From an uncultured Candidatus Saccharibacteria bacterium (GTDB lineage: Bacteria; Patescibacteriota; Minisyncoccia; UBA6257; 02-FULL-45-10c), in the NCBI GenBank assembly GCA_964355085.1, contig CAYHBW010000001.1, forward strand, positions 4,693 through 68,692: DNA of 64,000 nt, given 5' to 3'. The stretch's first letter is position 1; the number at the start of each line of letters is the position of its first letter. A program made the position numbers and the translations under genes. Shown piece by piece: positions 28,691 through 37,180 of this stretch. The notes beneath the pieces are model-generated. The model was not told where the DNA came from. It saw nothing but the letters and a program-made list of their open reading frames with translations, and searched no databases.

Positions 28691-29890
28691 CTAAAGATAA
28701 TCGCGTTTTACGAGATTTTCATATGCGTCAGCCAAAGATTCCTCCCGGCTGAAGCCCAATCCGGCTTTGGGAAACTTCCTGCCGATGCAATTCTTGGCGT
28801 TCTTTTTTATTGAAGTCAATATGGAGGCAAAAAGATTTGGGTTGCCATACGCGAAATATCTGTTCCATGCCTCAATCGTCAATGACTCTCCCAGCGCCAT
28901 ACTGATCATCCCGCCGACAAAATCTCCAGATCGCGCCGGCGTAGTATGGGAACTGTCCCAGCCGCCGGACAAACGAGGCGTGAGTTCCAAGATATACGGA
29001 CCGGTTTCAGTGAGCATGACATCCGCCTTCAGAATATGCCCTCCTTTTTGTTTATGCATGCCAATCGCTTTTCCTGAACGGTAGATCATTTCAGCCACTT
29101 CTTTTTTCAAACCGACGTCATGGATCGCCGGATTGATATGGCCTATCTCCACTCCCCAGCCGATTCCATGATACAGTTTCTTGCCGATTGCCCTCATATT
29201 TTTGAACTTTCCGAGATCTTTCCGGAATAAACGGTCGACCCAATTAAGCCAGTACATTTTCCCGTCATACCAAAGCGTCTCGACTGATTGTTCCGCTATT
29301 TCGCCATCAACCGGAATCAGGAGTTGTTCAACGATCGCCTGTCCAGTAGTTCCGTTCGCGAGAGCTTCTTCCAGCAATTCTTCCGTCGCCTCGCTTAACT
29401 TACTGATTGCGGCAAATCCCCGGCTTCCGGAATTATTGGTCGCCTTCAAAGCGACCGGCAATCCAATTTCCCTGATAGCCCGCTTCAATTCTTCAAGCGT
29501 CCGGACTGTCCGGAATTCCGGCTGTGGGATACCGGCGCGCGACAGGACTTTGCGGGTTTCCATCTTATACCGGCAGATTTTGGAAATCTTCGGATCAATG
29601 CCGGGCAAACCGAGACGCTTCGCCACGACAGCAACGGTTTCGTGGCAATCAACCGCAATACCCAGGACGCCTTTTATGTCATACTTTTTATTCAGCGCAT
29701 CAGCTGCCTTAAGATTTCCAGGAATATCAAAAGTATTCAAAGGCACGAATTCATCCGCGATGGCGGCGCAAACACACTCCGGATCCATATCGGTGATTAT
29801 CAACCTGAAACCGCGGATTTTTATTTTTTCAGCTGCGAGTTTCTGCATCGGTCCGCCGCCGAAAAGCCACATCGCTTTTTTCTTTTTCAT
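28691..29890 (-). CDS. ATP-grasp domain ligase
   Basis: 399 aa with a pre-ATP-grasp Rossmann-like N-terminus and a central ATP-grasp core (LPVALKATNNSGSRGF ... E..L.P). Stand-alone carboxylate-amine ligase-like. Confidence 0.65.
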   Translation of the reverse strand: MKKKKAMWLFGGGPMQKLAAEKIKIRGFRLIITDMDPECVCAAIADEFVPLNTFDIPGNLKAADALNKKYDIKGVLGIAVDCHETVAVVAKRLGLPGIDPKISKICRYKMETRKVLSRAGIPQPEFRTVRTLEELKRAIREIGLPVALKATNNSGSRGFAAISKLSEATEELLEEALANGTTGQAIVEQLLIPVDGEIAEQSVETLWYDGKMYWLNWVDRLFRKDLGKFKNMRAIGKKLYHGIGWGVEIGHINPAIHDVGLKKEVAEMIYRSGKAIGMHKQKGGHILKADVMLTETGPYILELTPRLSGGWDSSHTTPARSGDFVGGMISMALGESLTIEAWNRYFAYGNPNLFASILTSIKKNAKNCIGRKFPKAGLGFSREESLADAYENLVKRDYL

Positions 29891-29898
29891 GATAGTTT

Positions 29899-30795
29899 TT
29901 ATTTATTTTTTTTCGCGATAATGATAAATTCCCTGCCGATTCCCTTTCCGCCGAAAGACCGGTAAATTCCGTTAAGAAGTTCGGGGTCGCCATTATACAT
30001 ATTAAGTTCAAAATCTTTCCTCCGCAACTGGCATTGTCGGCCGACTTCCGGATTGCCGACATAGTTCAAGCCGGAAAAAAGGAAAAATTCCATAGGAAAA
30101 TTTCCGAGCAGATCCACGACTTCCAGACCGAGCCGTTCAAGCAGCTTGCTCACGGAAGCGGAATCGAAATAATTGAGGTGCTGGGGAGGCGAAACCCACC
30201 AAGGATCAAAATTCATTTTTTCCCTCAAAATATTCTGAAGCGGGTTATAATCATTCGGAGAAATGATGCAGATCAATCCACCTGGAGCAAGAGCGTCTTT
30301 TGCCTCCAGTAAGAGTTTTTCCGGATCCGGAAGATGTTCAATGACCGTTTTCATATAAATCGCATCGAATTTCCCGTATTTTCCCGCGGCTTTGGCGGAA
30401 AAGAAATCATTGACCACTTCCACGCCCAATTTCCGCGAATATTCCGAGGCATCCTTGGACGGTTCAAAGCCGAGCACATCCCATCCGAGATCCTTGCCGC
30501 ATTTCAAAAAATATCCCGGCCCTGAACCGATATCCAGCAATTTCCTACCGTCGGTATGCTTTGCAAGAAGACTGAAGTGATTGCGGTAAGTCGCCATCCA
30601 CCATTCCAGATCTTCTTCATAATCGGAAAAATATTTCGGCTTCACATGCGAATAAAACTCCTTGCCATAAAAATCTTCCAGCTCTTTGTCGGAAGGAATC
30701 GGGGTTACATGCCGGAATCCGCAAGATTCGCATTCAATGACTTCATAACCGTTTTTTCTGTCCAAAATCTTTCCTTTGTGAGATTTATCATTCAT
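29899..30795 (-). CDS. class I SAM-dependent methyltransferase with N-terminal zinc ribbon
   Basis: CESCGF...TP ribbon, LLDIGSGPGYFLKCGKDLG motif I and IYMKTVIEHLPDP. Confidence 0.75.
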   Translation of the reverse strand: MNDKSHKGKILDRKNGYEVIECESCGFRHVTPIPSDKELEDFYGKEFYSHVKPKYFSDYEEDLEWWMATYRNHFSLLAKHTDGRKLLDIGSGPGYFLKCGKDLGWDVLGFEPSKDASEYSRKLGVEVVNDFFSAKAAGKYGKFDAIYMKTVIEHLPDPEKLLLEAKDALAPGGLICIISPNDYNPLQNILREKMNFDPWWVSPPQHLNYFDSASVSKLLERLGLEVVDLLGNFPMEFFLFSGLNYVGNPEVGRQCQLRRKDFELNMYNGDPELLNGIYRSFGGKGIGREFIIIAKKNK

Positions 30796-30865
30796 GAATT
30801 TATATGTTCATATATAACCACAAAACAGCCTTATTTGTCTCTTGATATGACTCATCCGAAAATTA

Positions 30866-30894
30866 AAAACACCTTGACCGGATCAAAGTGTTTT
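30866..30894 (-). promoter_or_regulatory. intra-operon hairpin downstream of the neuB-family gene (possible attenuator or partial terminator)
   Basis: aaaacaccttga ccgga tcaaagtgtttt is a 12-bp stem with one C.A mismatch. It lies in the only sizeable gap (110 nt) of the long minus-strand operon. Confidence 0.3.
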
Positions 30895-30905
30895 GAAAAC
30901 TATAT

Positions 30906-32042
30906 TTACTCTCCCATGAGATCTTCCCAAACAATCGGGCTTCTGGCCTTAATCTTGTTTTTGACTTTTTTCCCGATAATCAATTCCGCATGACCAGTAT
31001 CAATACCGCCGGACGGCCGCAGCGAAATCAGCATATCTTCCGTCAACACGGCGCCCTTTGAAATATCCCTTGAGGCATATAGCGACCGCCTGACCCAGCG
31101 ATCAAAAATTTCGTCTCCTTCATGACCAGGATAGGAAACCGGCTGTTTGATCCCGGAACCGGACAACGCCTCTTCCGTCATCCGAATTTCTGCGACCATA
31201 CGCTTGAAATCCGCCGGCTCCGTTGAATTCGGATCATCGTGGCTTCCGCCGGCCTGCGAATCGGTAAAATGCTTTTCAATCGCGACAGCACCCAAAGCAA
31301 CGGCTGCCAACGGAGCCGCAAGATGCGGCGGCTTGGAATGATCCGAATAACCGACCGGCAGATGGAATGCATTGCGGAGAGTTTCGATTGCGCGCAGGTT
31401 CAAGTCAGAAAAACTGCGCGGTGGATACATGGATACGCAATGGAGCAAAACAATATCGTCATTGCCTTCCTGCTGTATAACCCGGACCGCATGCGCGACT
31501 TCTTCCAAATAAGCCATGCCGGTGGAAAGAATGATGGGCTTCCCCTGCTTTGCGATATACCGAAGCAATAAGTCATCGGTCATTTCATATGAAGCGATCT
31601 TAAAAGCCGGAACTTTCGATTTCATCAGGACATCCACCGCCTCTTTGTCAAAAGGAGTAGAAAGGAACATGATGCCCTTCTTTTTCGCATATTCAACCAA
31701 TCGTCCCGTCCATTCGTAAGGCAGTTCGGATGACCCGTAAAATTCGGAAAGAGTTTTCCAGCTTTTCTTTCCATTCCAGGAAATATCTATAGGGGTATCA
31801 GCGGCGATTTTATCGTGCTTGAGATGCTGGAATTTCACAGCGTCTGCGCCGGATTCCGCCGCAATATCAATAAACCGGAGCGCGTTTTTCAGATCGCCTT
31901 TATGATTCGCGCCGACTTCAGCGATGATAAAAACCGGCTGGCCTGCGCCGATTGTTTTATTCCCTATCCTTACCGAATTTACCGGCTGATATGTTAGATT
32001 TTCAGGCAATTTTTTGAAATAACCGTCTCTTTCTTTCCCCAT
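30906..32042 (-). CDS. neuB: N-acetylneuraminate-synthase-family nonulosonic acid synthase (NeuB/PseI/LegI) with C-terminal SAF domain
   Basis: IGNKTIGAGQPVFIIAEVGANHKGDLKNALRFIDIAAESGADAVKFQ is the canonical NeuB N-terminus. A C-terminal antifreeze-like/SAF domain is present. Confidence 0.85.
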   Translation of the reverse strand: MGKERDGYFKKLPENLTYQPVNSVRIGNKTIGAGQPVFIIAEVGANHKGDLKNALRFIDIAAESGADAVKFQHLKHDKIAADTPIDISWNGKKSWKTLSEFYGSSELPYEWTGRLVEYAKKKGIMFLSTPFDKEAVDVLMKSKVPAFKIASYEMTDDLLLRYIAKQGKPIILSTGMAYLEEVAHAVRVIQQEGNDDIVLLHCVSMYPPRSFSDLNLRAIETLRNAFHLPVGYSDHSKPPHLAAPLAAVALGAVAIEKHFTDSQAGGSHDDPNSTEPADFKRMVAEIRMTEEALSGSGIKQPVSYPGHEGDEIFDRWVRRSLYASRDISKGAVLTEDMLISLRPSGGIDTGHAELIIGKKVKNKIKARSPIVWEDLMGE

Positions 32043-32055
32043 AATTTAAATTTAT

Positions 32056-33192
32056 TTAACTGATCAAAATATTTTTAATTTCCTTTATGACGGTTTCCTG
32101 GTCCGATCCGCTCAACCCGGGATAGATAGGAATTGAAATCTCTGAAAGATAGAAATCTTCGGCGACCGGACAGATTCCTTTTTTATATCCCAGCTCCTGA
32201 TAATACGGATGCCAGTAGACGGGAATATAGTGAACTTGGACGCCTACTCCGGCTTTTTGTAATTTTTCAAAAACTTCACGGCGGCGCGACTGTAACTTCC
32301 CTGAAAGCCTGATCGGGTAAAGATGGCGGCTGGACTTCCTTCCTTCAAAATCCGCCGGCAAGACCAGATCCGGAAATCCGGAAAGTTCCTCGGAATAACG
32401 CTTTGCTAATTCATTTCTTGATTTTATGAATGTCGGAAGTTTCTTGAGCTGACTTATTCCGAGAGCCGCCTGCATGTCAGTCATCCGATAATTCAATCCA
32501 AGCTCCTGCATCTCGTGATACCACGGACCATGCGGATCGTTCTTAAAATCATTGGCGTCCTTTGTTATTCCGTGACTCCGGAATAACAGCAATTTTTTAT
32601 AAAAATTTTCGTTGTCAGTGAGAATCGCGCCGCCTTCGCCGGTGGTTATCGATTTCACCGGGTGGAAGCTAAAAGTCGTCATATCAGCGATGCTTCCGAC
32701 TTTCTTTCCGCCATATTCGGCACCGAGCGAATGTGCGGCGTCCTCGATCAGAATCAGATTATGTTTTTTTGCAATTGATTTTAAAATATCCAAATCACAT
32801 GGCAAGCCGGAATAATCGACAGCTACGATGGCTTTTGTCTTGCCAGTTATCTTTTCCTCGATCAAATGAGCGTCGATATTGCCCGTAGACCTCTCAACAT
32901 CGACGAAAACAGGCGTCGCCCCCTGCCAAATAGCCGCATTTGAAGTCGCAGCGAATGTGATCGGTGAAGTGATGATCTCATCTCCAGGACCGATTCCGGC
33001 GGCAAAATAGGCGGCCTGCAAAGCGGCTGTGCCGTTTGAAATGACGACGGCATATTTCGCTCCGCAATAATCAGCCAGCGCAGATTCGAATTCTTTTATT
33101 TTCGGGCCTTGGGTCATCCAATCAGACTCCAAAACCTCACGGACTGACCTCAAATCCTCCCCGTCAATTGATTGATGCGAATAAGGGATCAT
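32056..33192 (-). CDS. DegT-family aminotransferase, PseC/LegC-like (UDP-4-keto-6-deoxy-hexosamine transaminase)
   Basis: The MIPYSHQSIDGEDLRSVREVLESDWMTQGPKIKEFE...AVVISNGTAALQAA N-terminus is typical of PseC-type enzymes. The track ORF also shows FSFHPVKSITTGEGGAIL. Confidence 0.8.
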   Translation of the reverse strand: MIPYSHQSIDGEDLRSVREVLESDWMTQGPKIKEFESALADYCGAKYAVVISNGTAALQAAYFAAGIGPGDEIITSPITFAATSNAAIWQGATPVFVDVERSTGNIDAHLIEEKITGKTKAIVAVDYSGLPCDLDILKSIAKKHNLILIEDAAHSLGAEYGGKKVGSIADMTTFSFHPVKSITTGEGGAILTDNENFYKKLLLFRSHGITKDANDFKNDPHGPWYHEMQELGLNYRMTDMQAALGISQLKKLPTFIKSRNELAKRYSEELSGFPDLVLPADFEGRKSSRHLYPIRLSGKLQSRRREVFEKLQKAGVGVQVHYIPVYWHPYYQELGYKKGICPVAEDFYLSEISIPIYPGLSGSDQETVIKEIKNILIS

Positions 33193-33207
33193 CGTTTATT
33201 CCGGCCT

Positions 33208-34188
33208 TCAGCCGAGGATTTCTTTGGCTTTCCGCGGATTATTCAGAAAATCCCGGTGATTGCTGGCGTATTGGAATTGCTTTTTGACTGACGGCTTTTT
33301 ATTCAGCCAGCGCACGCTTCCGGATTCAGGATGGATGGCGAAAGCGCTCCCGATATCCTTGGCCCGGCGCGCTTCATGCTCGGTTATCAGCACTTCATGT
33401 AATTTTTCTCCCGGACGGATTCCGATGACTTCGACATCGCATTCCGGAGCCAGATATTTTATGACATCCGTAACTTTCAGGCTTTTCATCTTCGGCACGA
33501 AAAGCTCTCCGCCCTCCATGACGCCGACGGCGTCCAGAATTATATCCAGAACTTTATCTATGGAAATCCAGAAACGGGTCATCTCCTTGTCCGTCAACTT
33601 GATCACGCCTGTTTTTTTCTGATTATGAATAAGTTCGATCAGACTTCCGCGGCTTCCGATGACATTTCCATAACGCACGACGCTGAACTTGGTGCGTAAA
33701 TTATTTCCGACATATACATTGCCGGAAATAAACAATCTTTCCGCCGCAAGCTTGGTGGCGCCGTAAAGGTTTATCGGTTGAACCGCTTTGTCGGAAGAAA
33801 TAAGCATCACCTTGTCTATGTTCTTGTTCAAAGCCGCCTCAACGACATTCTGACTCCCTAAAATGTTCGTTTTGACAGCTTCCATCGGATTGAATTCAAT
33901 CGCCGGAACCTGCTTCAACGCCGCCGCATGGACGACGATATCCACTCCATCAAACGCCCTCTCCAAACGGGGCAAATCCCGGACATCGCCGATGAAAAAC
34001 CTCAATCGATCCTTATGATCGGCCAGATCTCTTTGCATTTCATACTGCTTGAATTCATCCCGGCTGAAAATTATGATTTTTTTGACCGCGCTTTCGCTTA
34101 AAAGTTTGGCAACAAAAGCCCGGCCGAAAGTCCCGGTGCCGCCGGTGACCAGAACCGTCTTGCCCTTGAGATAATTTAAGTTCGACAT
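33208..34188 (-). CDS. pseB: UDP-N-acetylglucosamine 4,6-dehydratase (inverting), PseB/FlaA1 family
   Basis: Aligns by eye nearly end-to-end with H. pylori FlaA1/PseB. Shared blocks: TVLVTGGTGTFG, KKIIIFSRDEFKQYEM, RFFIGDVRD, HAAALKQVP, KTNILGSQNV, INLYGATKL, FSVVRYGNVIGSRGS, MTRFWI, GGELFVPK, IGIRPGEKLHEV. Confidence 0.9.
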   Translation of the reverse strand: MSNLNYLKGKTVLVTGGTGTFGRAFVAKLLSESAVKKIIIFSRDEFKQYEMQRDLADHKDRLRFFIGDVRDLPRLERAFDGVDIVVHAAALKQVPAIEFNPMEAVKTNILGSQNVVEAALNKNIDKVMLISSDKAVQPINLYGATKLAAERLFISGNVYVGNNLRTKFSVVRYGNVIGSRGSLIELIHNQKKTGVIKLTDKEMTRFWISIDKVLDIILDAVGVMEGGELFVPKMKSLKVTDVIKYLAPECDVEVIGIRPGEKLHEVLITEHEARRAKDIGSAFAIHPESGSVRWLNKKPSVKKQFQYASNHRDFLNNPRKAKEILG

Positions 34189-34381
34189 AATGCTATTAAA
34201 ACTATCATATACCCTAAAGGGTTTCCAGATGTGTATTGAAAGACAGATATGAGATGCGGACTTGCATTCTAAATTCCACCGGATATTCTGCCGGATGACA
34301 AAATCAAGATTTCAAAAAATTGACGATAAAATTTTTGGCTTTAAATCTATCTTAATTTAAGATATTATTATACATGACACC

Positions 34382-34423
34382 ATGAAACTTTCCGATTATA
34401 TAATTGATTATATTACATTATGA
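34382..34423 (+). other. 13-codon upstream ORF (MKLSDYIIDYITL*) that duplicates the N-terminus of the downstream TPP-enzyme gene. Its TGA stop overlaps that gene's ATG (ATGA).
   Basis: atgaaactttccgattatataattgattatattacattatga is followed immediately, out of frame, by atgaaattatcagattatgttgctgattacatagcg (MKLSDYVADYIA...). Confidence 0.35.
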
Positions 34424-36228
34424 AATTATCAGATTATGTTGCTGATTACATAGCGAATTTAGGTACTAAAAAAGTCTTTTTAGTTACCGGCGGAGCATGC
34501 GTACATCTGGTCAATTCCATCAGCAAACATGAGAAACTTGGCTATGTCTGCATGCAACATGAGCAATCAGCGGCAATGGCGGCCGAGGCTTATTCCCGAG
34601 TCGGACCAGGAATCGGCGTCGCCGTGGCGACCAGCGGACCGGGTGCCACCAATTTCATAACCGGCATCTGCGGCGCCTGGTTTGATTCCATACCTACGCT
34701 ATTTATTACCGGAAATGTGAATATGCACGAGATGAAAGGCATGACAAAACTCCGTCAGGTCGGTTTTCAGGAAACTGATATTGTAAATATAGTTTCGTCC
34801 GTAACTAAATTTAGCCACACGGTGACTGATCCGGAAAAAATAAAATACTATCTCGATAAGGCGATCTTTATGGCAAATTCAGGAAGACCGGGTCCGGTAT
34901 TGCTGGATCTGCCGATGAATATCCAGCATGCGGAAATTGATCCTGAAAAACTTATCGGGTTTGTTCCTGATAAAAATACAGGGGATGAAAAGATCGGCGA
35001 TGAAAAAATGATAAAGAAAGCATTACAGTTGATCAAAAACGCCAGACGACCGGTAATTTTAGCCGGAGGAGGCATACGCATTTCCGAAGCCGCTGAAGAA
35101 TTCCGCGAATTTGTAAAATATCTGGGCTTCCCGGTAGTTTGCTCCTGGAGCGGAATTGATGTCCTGGGATATGATAATCCTCTCTTCATAGGACAAATCG
35201 GGGTTTATGGAAATCGCGGAGCAAATTTTCTGATTCAAAATGCGGACTTGGTAATTTCCATAGGGTCCCGCCTGGATACGCGACAAGTCAGCGGAAACGC
35301 AAAAAGTTTTGCACGCGCCGCAAAAAAAATTATAGTGGATATTGATGCGCAGCAACTGAAAGACGGCCGAGTACGTCCAGATATCGCAATTCATTCAGAT
35401 GTAAAGCAATTTTTACTGACAACCATGCCTCACCTCAAGAATTTAAAGAAGGAAGATATTGCCCCGTGGCTGACAAAAGCGCTCGAATGGAAAAGAAAAT
35501 ATCCGACCTGTCTTCCGGAGTACCGAAAGGAGAAGAAATTTGTTAACCCATATGTTTTTTTCAAGACCCTTTCCGAAGAACTCCGACCGGATGATATCAT
35601 CATTTCCGACATCGGAGGAGTTTTAGTCTGGGTTATGCAATCCCTCGAAATCAAAGAGGGGCAGAGATTATTCTCCTCAATGGGACATGCCGCGATGGGT
35701 TACGGCCTGCCGGCGGGAATCGGCGCCGCATTGGCTACAAAAAAATCCAGAATAATCTGCATTGTCGGCGACGGAGGAATGCAAATGAATATTCAGGAAT
35801 TGCAGACAATTTTTCATCATAAACTGCCTCTGAAGATTTTTATCGTCAATAATAATTGTTACGGGATAGTTCGCCAATACGAAGATTCGTATTTTAATGG
35901 CGAACATGAGGGTACTGTCCAGGACAGCGGGTACACAGCTCCTGATTTTGTCATGGTCGGAAAATCATACAAGATACCGTCATCACGCATTCTGAATCAT
36001 TCAAATATGCGATCTGAGATTCGAAGAGCTTTGGGAACAAAAGGCGCGGAAATAATCGATGTCATAGTGCGCGAAGATCAAAAATTAATCCCAAAACTTG
36101 AGGCAAAACGGATGAAAAACGGCCGCTACATCTCAAAGCCCATTGAGGATCAGTGGCCGTATCTTTCCAGAAAAGAGTTCACGGCCAATATGATAATTCC
36201 GCCAACCGATGAAATCGACGATGAATAA
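34420..36228 (+). CDS. thiamine-pyrophosphate-dependent acetolactate-synthase-like enzyme (YerE-like carboligase candidate)
   Basis: 602 aa with three-domain ALS/POX architecture: N-terminal Pyr domain (GGACVHLVNSI...EQSAAMAAEAY), central domain, and C-terminal TPP-binding GDGGMQMNIQEL...NNNCYG (GDG-x24-NN). Confidence 0.75.
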   Translation: MKLSDYVADYIANLGTKKVFLVTGGACVHLVNSISKHEKLGYVCMQHEQSAAMAAEAYSRVGPGIGVAVATSGPGATNFITGICGAWFDSIPTLFITGNVNMHEMKGMTKLRQVGFQETDIVNIVSSVTKFSHTVTDPEKIKYYLDKAIFMANSGRPGPVLLDLPMNIQHAEIDPEKLIGFVPDKNTGDEKIGDEKMIKKALQLIKNARRPVILAGGGIRISEAAEEFREFVKYLGFPVVCSWSGIDVLGYDNPLFIGQIGVYGNRGANFLIQNADLVISIGSRLDTRQVSGNAKSFARAAKKIIVDIDAQQLKDGRVRPDIAIHSDVKQFLLTTMPHLKNLKKEDIAPWLTKALEWKRKYPTCLPEYRKEKKFVNPYVFFKTLSEELRPDDIIISDIGGVLVWVMQSLEIKEGQRLFSSMGHAAMGYGLPAGIGAALATKKSRIICIVGDGGMQMNIQELQTIFHHKLPLKIFIVNNNCYGIVRQYEDSYFNGEHEGTVQDSGYTAPDFVMVGKSYKIPSSRILNHSNMRSEIRRALGTKGAEIIDVIVREDQKLIPKLEAKRMKNGRYISKPIEDQWPYLSRKEFTANMIIPPTDEIDDE

Positions 36229-37180
36229 TATATCTCAAATAATTGATGAAATGGATGGACCGATACTTATAACCGGCGCCAGCGGATTTATCGGCGCTAA
36301 TTTGGCTAGAAAAATTGCAAAGACGCGCGACGATGTTCATATAATAGTCAGGAACGGATCGAATCTCCGGCGCATTGAAGACATGCTTCCGCAAATCACG
36401 GTGCATCGCGCGGATCTTTCCGACCGCAATGATATCTTTCTGAAGATCGGAGAGATTCAGCCGAAAACAATTTTTCATGCGGCCGCTTATGGCGTCCACT
36501 CATTTCAAAATGAAACTGAAAAAATTGAGACTGCAAACCTCCACGGCACGATTAACTTATTGGATGCCTGCGTCAAATCCGGTTTCAAGATTTTTATCAA
36601 TACCGGATCTTCTTCAGAGTACGGCACAAAAAATAAGCCGATGAAAGAAACCGATCTTCTGACGCCTAACAGCGACTACGCGGTCTTTAAAGCGGCGGCG
36701 ACCCTTTACTGCCAGCACCTAGCGAGATCAAAAAAGATTCCGATCATAACGTTAAGGCCATTTTCGGTTTATGGCCAATTTGAAGAATCGACTAAATTGA
36801 TTCCGACGCTGATTAGATCATTTCTCGACGGCACATGTCCCCCGCTAGTGTCTCCTGATACGGCCAGAGACTACATTTTTATTGATGACTTAGTTGATGC
36901 CTATCTTATTGCCAGTCAAAAACCAGAATTAGGCGGAGAAATATTTAATGTCGGAAGCGGCAAGCAGACTACGCTGAAAGAAATAGTTGACTTATCAATC
37001 CGTTTGACTGGAGCTGCCGTTGAACCGGAATGGGGAACAATGAGTCCAAGGATCTGGGATCATAACATGTGGCAGGCGGACATATCAAAAATAAAATCAA
37101 TTCTAGATTGGTCGCCAAAAACTGATCTGAAGGAAGGACTGGCCAGGACAATTGACTGGATAGAATCCGACGGTAATTAA
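36209..37180 (+). CDS. NAD-dependent epimerase/dehydratase (extended SDR) acting on nucleotide sugars
   Basis: ILITGASGFIGANLARKI (GxxGxxG), catalytic YAVFKAA (YxxxK) and an S-x-x-Y pattern. 323 aa. Confidence 0.75.
   Translation: MKSTMNNISQIIDEMDGPILITGASGFIGANLARKIAKTRDDVHIIVRNGSNLRRIEDMLPQITVHRADLSDRNDIFLKIGEIQPKTIFHAAAYGVHSFQNETEKIETANLHGTINLLDACVKSGFKIFINTGSSSEYGTKNKPMKETDLLTPNSDYAVFKAAATLYCQHLARSKKIPIITLRPFSVYGQFEESTKLIPTLIRSFLDGTCPPLVSPDTARDYIFIDDLVDAYLIASQKPELGGEIFNVGSGKQTTLKEIVDLSIRLTGAAVEPEWGTMSPRIWDHNMWQADISKIKSILDWSPKTDLKEGLARTIDWIESDGN

Follow-up and report, generated by a model that had tools for sequence, protein, structure and literature searches.

Within a Patescibacteria glycan locus of the nonulosonic-acid (pseudaminic-acid-type) kind, the gene of a thiamine-pyrophosphate (TPP) enzyme is preceded by a 38-nt stub that carries the 5' end of another lineage of the same enzyme family (hereafter "clade B"), and this stub opens a short upstream open reading frame (uORF) that resembles the N-terminus of the gene itself. 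Sequence comparison showed the clade-B origin of the stub as well as its presence and decay in an ortholog. The stub is probably the pseudogene remnant of a clade-B homolog that was replaced, and it would now form an AU-rich leader. The uORF is incidental, i.e., it belongs to an ordinary gene remnant and is not a conserved regulatory device. The main value of this result is a correction: what appeared to be a self-duplication with a designed coupling uORF is read here as the footprint of a gene replacement between diverged homologs.

The window, i.e., the whole stretch of DNA that was analysed, comprises 64,000 nucleotides, and the features around the stub are collected in Table 1. Read codon by codon, the uORF is atg aaa ctt tcc gat tat ata att gat tat att aca tta tga. 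Its TGA (34421–34423) overlaps the ATG of the main gene at 34420, the two forming an ATGA (34420–34423), and the main ORF begins with MKLSDYVADYIANL (stub/gene junction sequence: GATTATATTACATTATGAAATTATCAG). Aligned with the start of the main ORF, the uORF is identical to it in 9 of 13 residues and in 25 of 39 nt. The 13-codon uORF with a stop overlapping the real start, the match at 9 of 13 residues, and the location in the 231-bp divergent region shared with pseB had all been part of the original prediction and were borne out by direct reading of the sequence. With two co-directional ORFs joined by a stop/start overlap (ATGA, −4 geometry), the arrangement has the form known from termination-reinitiation. 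The overlap is automatic and not selected, because the stub length of 38 nt is 2 mod 3 and the family has AAA or AAG (Lys) as codon 2; one in three junction phases yields an ATGA-type overlap.

Table 1 Features of the locus in window coordinates, with mismatches between the window and its ortholog L168 (two lineages compared)
Feature	Position	Strand	Mismatches window vs. L168	Remarks
pseB (UDP-GlcNAc 4,6-dehydratase, inverting)	33208–34188	−		TIGR03589, 409.5 bits vs. cutoff 407.75
Intergenic spacer to divergent gene	34189–34419			231 bp, 29% GC
Promoter-like block, conserved	34337–34373	+	1/37	TTTAAA (34340–34345), 17 nt, TATTAT (34363–34368); P about 9e-7 vs. neutral rate
Next 8 nt	34374–34381		4/8	
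Putative pseudogene stub, 38 nt	34382–34419	+	8/38	First ~12 codons of a clade-B TPP-enzyme homolog (MKLSDYIIDYIT); P = 0.03
uORF, 13 codons and stop	34382–34423	+		Opened by the old ATG of the stub; encodes MKLSDYIIDYITL, then stop
Stub nt 1–10, including ATG	34382–34391	+	1/10	P = 0.07
Stub nt 11–20	34392–34401	+	6/10	Close to neutral rate
Stub nt 21–38 (last 18 nt)	34402–34419	+	1/18	AU-rich, conserved in L168; P = 0.003
Resident TPP-enzyme gene, 602 aa	34420–36228	+		Pfam PF02776, PF00205, PF02775
Third positions of the gene's first 17 codons	34420–34470	+	8/17	
NAD-dependent epimerase/dehydratase (SDR) gene	36209–37180	+		Pfam PF01370; overlaps 3' end of TPP gene

The TPP gene was placed in a sugar-modification context. 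It is acetolactate-synthase (ALS)-like, yet it scored under every ALS equivalog cutoff (best NCBIfam match TIGR00118: 424 bits, cutoff 538) and was thus not assigned to the biosynthetic ALS. The SDR gene is co-transcribed with it, and the TPP and SDR gene pair is also present in a contig from another assembly (L001) as well as in the ortholog L168. On the other strand, pseB is the first gene of a pseB-pseC-pseI-like operon, in which DegT-type aminotransferase and NeuB-type genes come after it. The closest TPP-enzyme proteins are all from metagenomes of Patescibacteria (candidate phyla radiation, CPR), and exact-protein look-ups for the TPP and SDR proteins of the window and for P0122 gave no record. 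Gene content around the family members varies by locus, as expected of cassettes; the upstream regions of the other family loci gave no alignment to the intergenic region of the window, and the genes upstream of these loci had no Pfam matches. N-termini within the family are uniform (MKLSDY[VIL]x[DQ]Y[IL]), and since the uORF peptide fits this pattern, it is a legitimate family N-terminus itself. The "recent frameshift repair" proposed earlier has no support, as the resident gene has its own complete, family-typical N-terminus.

Stub ancestry was determined from 39 nt of three clade-B 5' ends (L003, L165, L166) and four resident-type 5' ends (the resident gene, L002, L164, L167). The stub is identical to the clade-B ends L003, L165, and L166 at 32, 31, and 30 of 39 nt, respectively, compared to 24–26 of 39 nt for the resident-type ends and 25 for the adjacent gene. 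Resident-type 5' ends have the codons TTA TCn ... GCn for Leu3, Ser4, and Ala8, whereas clade-B genes (gene start ATGAAACTTTCCGATTAT, protein start MKLSDYVIDYIAK) have CTT TCy ... ATT, and with C7, T9, A22, and T23 the stub has the clade-B state at four of four fixed diagnostic sites (positions 7, 9, 22, and 23). If 14 random changes were introduced into the resident sequence, the probability of reaching at least 32/39 to any clade-B sequence would be about 3e-6. At the protein level, the stub peptide matches residues 1–11 of P0003, P0005, and P0006 at 10 of 11 positions; tblastn with clade-B proteins aligned these residues to 34382–34414 (10/11 identical) and returned only noise for further clade-B fragments in the window. 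The changes private to the stub relative to clade B (positions 19, 21, 34, and 36) are all to A, which fits decay in a spacer with this base composition (29% GC). Hence, a fossil copy of N-terminal codons does lie head-to-tail before the gene, as had been predicted, while its derivation from this very gene is not supported (25/39 vs. 30–32/39 for clade B).

The clade-B signature of the stub reflects phylogeny rather than a peculiarity of the N-terminus, as clade B (P0003, P0005, P0006, P0007, P0008, P0009, and P0011) was also separated in a neighbour-joining tree that omitted the first 14 residues and carries no support values. In this tree, the window protein pairs with P0002, and P0004, P0010, and P0014 are separate from clade B as well. 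With proteins about 62% identical, clade B is a different lineage of the TPP-enzyme family. The 14 nt that differ between the stub and the 5' end of the main gene are distributed over codon positions 1, 2, and 3 as 5:2:7. Nine residues were kept despite these differences, for which the probability (at least 9/13 residues after 14 random substitutions) is about 4e-4, so both copies diverged as coding sequences. About 20 other family loci and 41 further genes of the window were examined, and none of them had a stub like this one upstream.

An ortholog of the locus was found on a contig of the unrelated run SRR12983620 (L168), which carries P0123, a protein that falls into one 90% protein cluster with the TPP protein of the window. 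Its layout is the same (divergent pseB, stub, TPP gene, SDR gene). Identity between the two TPP proteins is 91%, and differences are found at 37% of 240 fourfold-degenerate sites. The stub of L168 is also 38 nt long and has clade-B bases, and hence the event that produced it predates the split of the two lineages. It reads ATG AGA CTT TAA GGT TGC AGA ATT GAT TAT ATT ATA TT, followed by the main ATG. The uORF is thereby reduced to three codons (MRL, then stop), with the TAA located 26 nt upstream of the main ATG and without ATGA coupling, and no start codon in L168 reopens the stub frame. The comparison with an ortholog, which the original prediction had proposed, thus gave a divided answer: the duplicated segment is retained, the 13-codon uORF and the ATGA are not. 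With L168 being the one ortholog compared, the stop/start overlap is not kept among orthologs.

Conservation between the two lineages is unevenly distributed over the region (Table 1). Relative to the neutral rate (37% at fourfold sites), conservation is found in the promoter-like block and, within the stub, in its last 18 nt; the uORF is not conserved, and across the whole stub the divergence is somewhat below neutral. The ATG of the stub and the 38-nt spacing are kept in both lineages. The conserved block (GGCTTTAAATCNATCTTAATTTAAGATATTATTATAC) may act as promoter: sites in the promoter scan were no commoner than in shuffles, and TTTAAA-17-TATTAT is the only one that survives the comparison with L168. 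Transcription would then start near 34375, leaving about 7 nt of mRNA ahead of the stub ATG. Two further candidates in this region were rejected. A perfect TATAAT hexamer within the stub (34399–34404, with ATGACA 19 nt upstream) is CAGAAT in L168, and the ATG of a 3-codon mini-ORF (ATGACACCATGA, 34374–34385), which is chained onto the start of the uORF, is GTA in L168.

The last 18 nt of the stub are likely to be the translation-initiation leader of the resident gene. Almost no gene of the window has a Shine-Dalgarno (SD) motif, and start choice must rely on the AUG lying in unstructured, AU-rich surroundings; over the 20 nt before the gene starts, the A+T content in the window is 77%. By start context, the main ATG is at the genome median, and the stub ATG is in the lowest 15% of true starts. 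The fold of the RNA at 34370–34480 is no stabler than those of shuffles (z = +0.51), the terminator scan returned 0 sites, and there were 0 Rfam matches at E ≤ 1 over 34100–34520, i.e., neither a TPP riboswitch nor a leader family. The region thus lacks the marks of a leader-peptide attenuator or riboswitch that were looked for (fold, terminator, Rfam match).

From these observations the following course of events is proposed. A clade-B homolog would once have been located behind the promoter-like block, and the present TPP gene with its SDR partner would have replaced this gene or truncated it by insertion. The displacement occurred most probably by recombination, plausibly with one homologous and one illegitimate end, in a sugar-biosynthesis locus that is variable. 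The incoming TPP gene would have inherited the old promoter as well as the first ~12 codons of the old gene as its 5' leader. The old start codon would still open a frame, and this frame necessarily reaches the TGA inside the ATGA. Ribosomes probably either load directly on the AU-rich last 18 nt or initiate at the old AUG, translate the 13-mer, and then reinitiate; the remnant would be tolerated under either route. The last 18 nt are presumably constrained as an AU-rich landing site, and the remainder of the stub would drift. As to mechanism and direction of the replacement (old resident versus aborted incoming fragment), these are what we infer rather than observe, because the search turned up neither a donor nor an ancestral locus, and microhomology at the junction was not definable. 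An intact clade-B gene beside this pseB was not found in scans of genomes (≤62% identity) and metagenome contigs (≤55% identity).

The stub is probably a further example of a known feature type, i.e., a gene remnant left by replacement. It has truncated homology to a functional family (10/11 aa, over 38 nt only), it is nearer to another lineage than to the adjacent gene, and its ORF decays in the orthologous locus (stop at codon 4 in L168). Gene remnants at the junctions of polysaccharide clusters are documented (PMC3715488). Like the Salmonella O-antigen wzy remnants of that report, the stub is a short non-functional homolog fragment in a cassette-replaced sugar-biosynthesis locus, and its decay differs between lineages. 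It differs from wzy-type remnants in being only 38 nt of a 5' end, in abutting the start of a homolog of the same family, and in still opening an ORF; in addition, the host is an uncultured member of the Patescibacteria, and the replacement was deduced without reconstructed intermediates. Displacement with retained fragments is also documented for homology-facilitated illegitimate recombination (PMC5361080). In T6SS effector/immunity arrays and Rhs/CDI orphan tips (PMC5361080), an incoming homolog likewise displaces the resident and the old piece adjoins the new gene. However, these systems keep 3' ends and downstream immunity genes, and the pieces are often functional, whereas the piece here is a 5' stub that lies upstream and has no evident function; neither an anchor nor homology at the junction was identified. 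With ATGA termination-reinitiation pairs (PMC6728339, PMC12548453) the locus shares the −4 geometry and co-directional ORFs on one mRNA; in contrast to them, its upstream ORF is a 13-codon pseudogene fragment, the overlap is lost in the ortholog, and the coupling is only putative. Bacterial leader peptides and attenuators are similar in having a short ORF in the 5' leader of a biosynthetic gene, but alternative hairpins, a terminator, a regulatory codon run, an Rfam match, and peptide conservation were not found here.

As a remnant of a replaced homolog, the stub is a dated marker: the swap would be older than the split of lineages that are now 37% diverged at fourfold sites. It suggests that glycan loci of this type in CPR bacteria evolve by cassette replacement as known from O-antigen and capsule loci, and that a gene can take over the 5' end of its dead predecessor as promoter-proximal leader. 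In annotation, a uORF with an ATGA overlap and a resemblance to the main ORF needs comparison with other clades of the family before a regulatory reading.

A function of the uORF in delivering ribosomes is a rather unlikely alternative. In this case, the uORF would have been exapted on an mRNA without SD site, acting by reinitiation in the window lineage and by short-range rescanning in the L168 lineage. The geometry is that of the standard −4 overlap, for which strict coupling was seen in those bacterial and archaeal gene pairs that have been tested (Huber et al. 2019, PMC6728339), and uORFs that "deliver" ribosomes have been proposed before (review PMC12548453). The stub ATG was formerly a genuine start and is kept in L168, in both lineages the frame ends no later than at the main ATG, and the genes here are without SD sites. 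However, length, peptide, and stop position of the uORF vary (13 codons with ATGA versus 3 codons ending 26 nt upstream), and the ATGA stop follows automatically from the 38-nt offset. Furthermore, the context of the stub ATG is poorer than that of the main ATG (bottom 15% versus median), there is no structure that translation of the uORF could melt (z = +0.5), and a comparable uORF was present in no other family member examined. By analogy with −4 gene pairs, coupling of the uORF to the TPP gene is plausible in the window lineage; it cannot be essential, since L168 is without the arrangement. Slightly less likely still is that the start codon of the dead gene was exapted as a ribosome "launch pad", with a mini- or short uORF on which ribosomes are loaded close to the mRNA 5' end and passed to the replacement gene. 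If true, this would account for the survival of the ATG and the 38-nt spacing in both lineages despite the loss of the peptide. As this ATG and its spacing are conserved in both lineages, some function of the start codon or of a mini-ORF at its position keeps a small chance.

The model of the original prediction, in which the first 38 nt of the resident gene were duplicated in situ in tandem and the peptide was kept by selection as a leader, is very improbable given the ancestry of the stub. Although the head-to-tail arrangement, the 9/13 amino-acid identity, and the preponderance of substitutions at third codon positions (5:2:7) would suit such a duplication, neither copy is the nearest relative of the other. 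The stub contains the codons of another clade (P about 3e-6 for derivation from the resident gene), including T-to-C and A-to-C differences opposite to the AT bias, and the 5' sequence of the resident type is common to P0002, P0004, and P0010 and thus old. The peptide is destroyed in L168. Its presumed recruitment as a coupling or leader peptide is not supported, given the same ortholog, where MRL and a stop remain without ATGA, and the lack of structure, terminator, and leader family in the region.

An assembly error had been named as an alternative as well, and the recurrence of the junction in contigs of three further Hainich groundwater assemblies (L163, L169, L001) shows that it is not an artefact. 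L163 (ERZ1292616) covers 29237–34750 with 0 mismatches to the window, L169 (ERZ1292618) is identical across the junction region, and L001 (ERZ1292636) has the identical junction with 16 differences from the window elsewhere; because of these differences, L001 was counted as an independent assembly. A metagenome assembly chimera of two strain variants is accordingly hardly credible, even with low coverage on all contigs (about 3–4x) and a mixed-strain population containing a mosaic tract. Besides the identical junction in the contigs of three other samples, a diverged but collinear version exists in the unrelated run SRR12983620, and the longest k-mer common to both copies is ~6 nt, which is too short to be collapsed in a k-mer graph or to cause a false join. 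Chance resemblance within AT-rich DNA (29% GC, with GATTAT-type words repeated) has a negligible probability, since 9/13 was reached in any frame by 0 of 20,000 shuffles of the 231-bp region (maximum 8, once), a match of ≥7/13 was absent from all other 13-aa windows on both strands of the 64 kb, and the stub specifically resembles clade-B DNA and persists in L168.

Within the TPP gene, 14 mismatches between L001 and the window form a tract of about 80 bp (35001–35079), which causes three amino-acid changes. Twelve of the tract sites could be compared with L168, whose state is found in L001 at eight and in the window at two of them. Judged by this pattern, the tract is a gene-conversion-like import from a diverged allele, and homologous recombination with diverged alleles is active within the TPP gene.

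A Shine-Dalgarno (SD) motif was missing from almost all of the ~50 long ORFs of the window, and the 20 nt upstream of gene starts averaged 77% A+T. Together, the low SD frequency and the A+T-rich upstream sequence suggest SD-independent initiation in this Patescibacteria genome. In L002, which carries a 75% identical homolog of the TPP enzyme, an in-frame ATG preceded by AGGAG was located 11 codons upstream of the called start; either the called start may be wrong, or this lineage may use SD sites. The first ATG of the SDR gene was placed inside the end of the TPP gene (20-nt overlap), and a second in-frame ATG (ATGAATAA) overlapped the TPP stop codon. The gene caller chose the equivalent of this second ATG on L001, a contig of a separate Hainich groundwater assembly, and the true start is ambiguous between the two.

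Ahead of the uORF opened by the stub, a 3-codon mini-ORF (ATG ACA CCA TGA) was found whose stop overlaps the uORF ATG, so that mini-ORF, uORF, and TPP gene form a chain with two ATGA overlaps. It was rejected as a meaningful element and is probably due to chance, because its ATG reads GTA in L168, the orthologous locus from an unrelated run.

The spacer between pseB and the TPP gene was 231 bp long in the window vs 131 bp in L168. Both spacers keep the promoter block on the TPP side and the region around the pseB start, and ~100 nt in two blocks of the pseB-proximal half were missing in L168. The L168 stub was broken by a 10-nt patch (AGGTTGCAGA), which was identical at 9 of 10 positions, with an offset of 5 nt, to codons 6–9 of the TPP gene of L168 itself (ACGTTGCAGA). 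The patch may stem from micro gene conversion or template switching between stub and gene, or from chance.

Across the 5.3 kb compared, window and L001 were identical except for 14 mismatches clustered in ~80 bp inside the TPP gene, causing three amino-acid changes. At 8 of the 12 sites (of 14) comparable with the diverged lineage, L001 had the L168 state, and the tract looks like a short recombination import.

Coordinates of the described features
Feature	Window	Other contig
Examples of gene starts	12425, 13159, 29890, 32042, 39832	
Upstream ATG; called start; region		L002 2346; 2379; 2337-2381
SDR/TPP overlap (first ATG at 36209)	36209-36228	
Second SDR ATG	36221	
Mini-ORF	34374-34385	
Spacer blocks missing in L168	~34230-34325	L168 ~990-1010
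Stub patch		L168 1077-1086
TPP codons 6–9		L168 1119-1128
Mismatch tract	35001-35079	L001 793-871
TPP enzyme with pseB/pseC/pseI	30906-37180	
TPP enzyme with 164-aa ORF and pseI-like gene		L003 180-3564

The TPP enzyme, which is acetolactate-synthase-like and scored below ALS cutoffs, was linked to pseB, pseC, and pseI in the window. In L003, a clade B locus, the TPP enzyme was linked to a 164-aa ORF and a pseI-like gene, called as such by the similarity of its translation to the NeuB protein of the window. Linkage of a TPP enzyme to pseudaminic-acid-type genes was found in Patescibacteria at both loci, and hints that a putative TPP-dependent reaction may modify the side chain of a sugar, either a nonulosonic acid or a related one.
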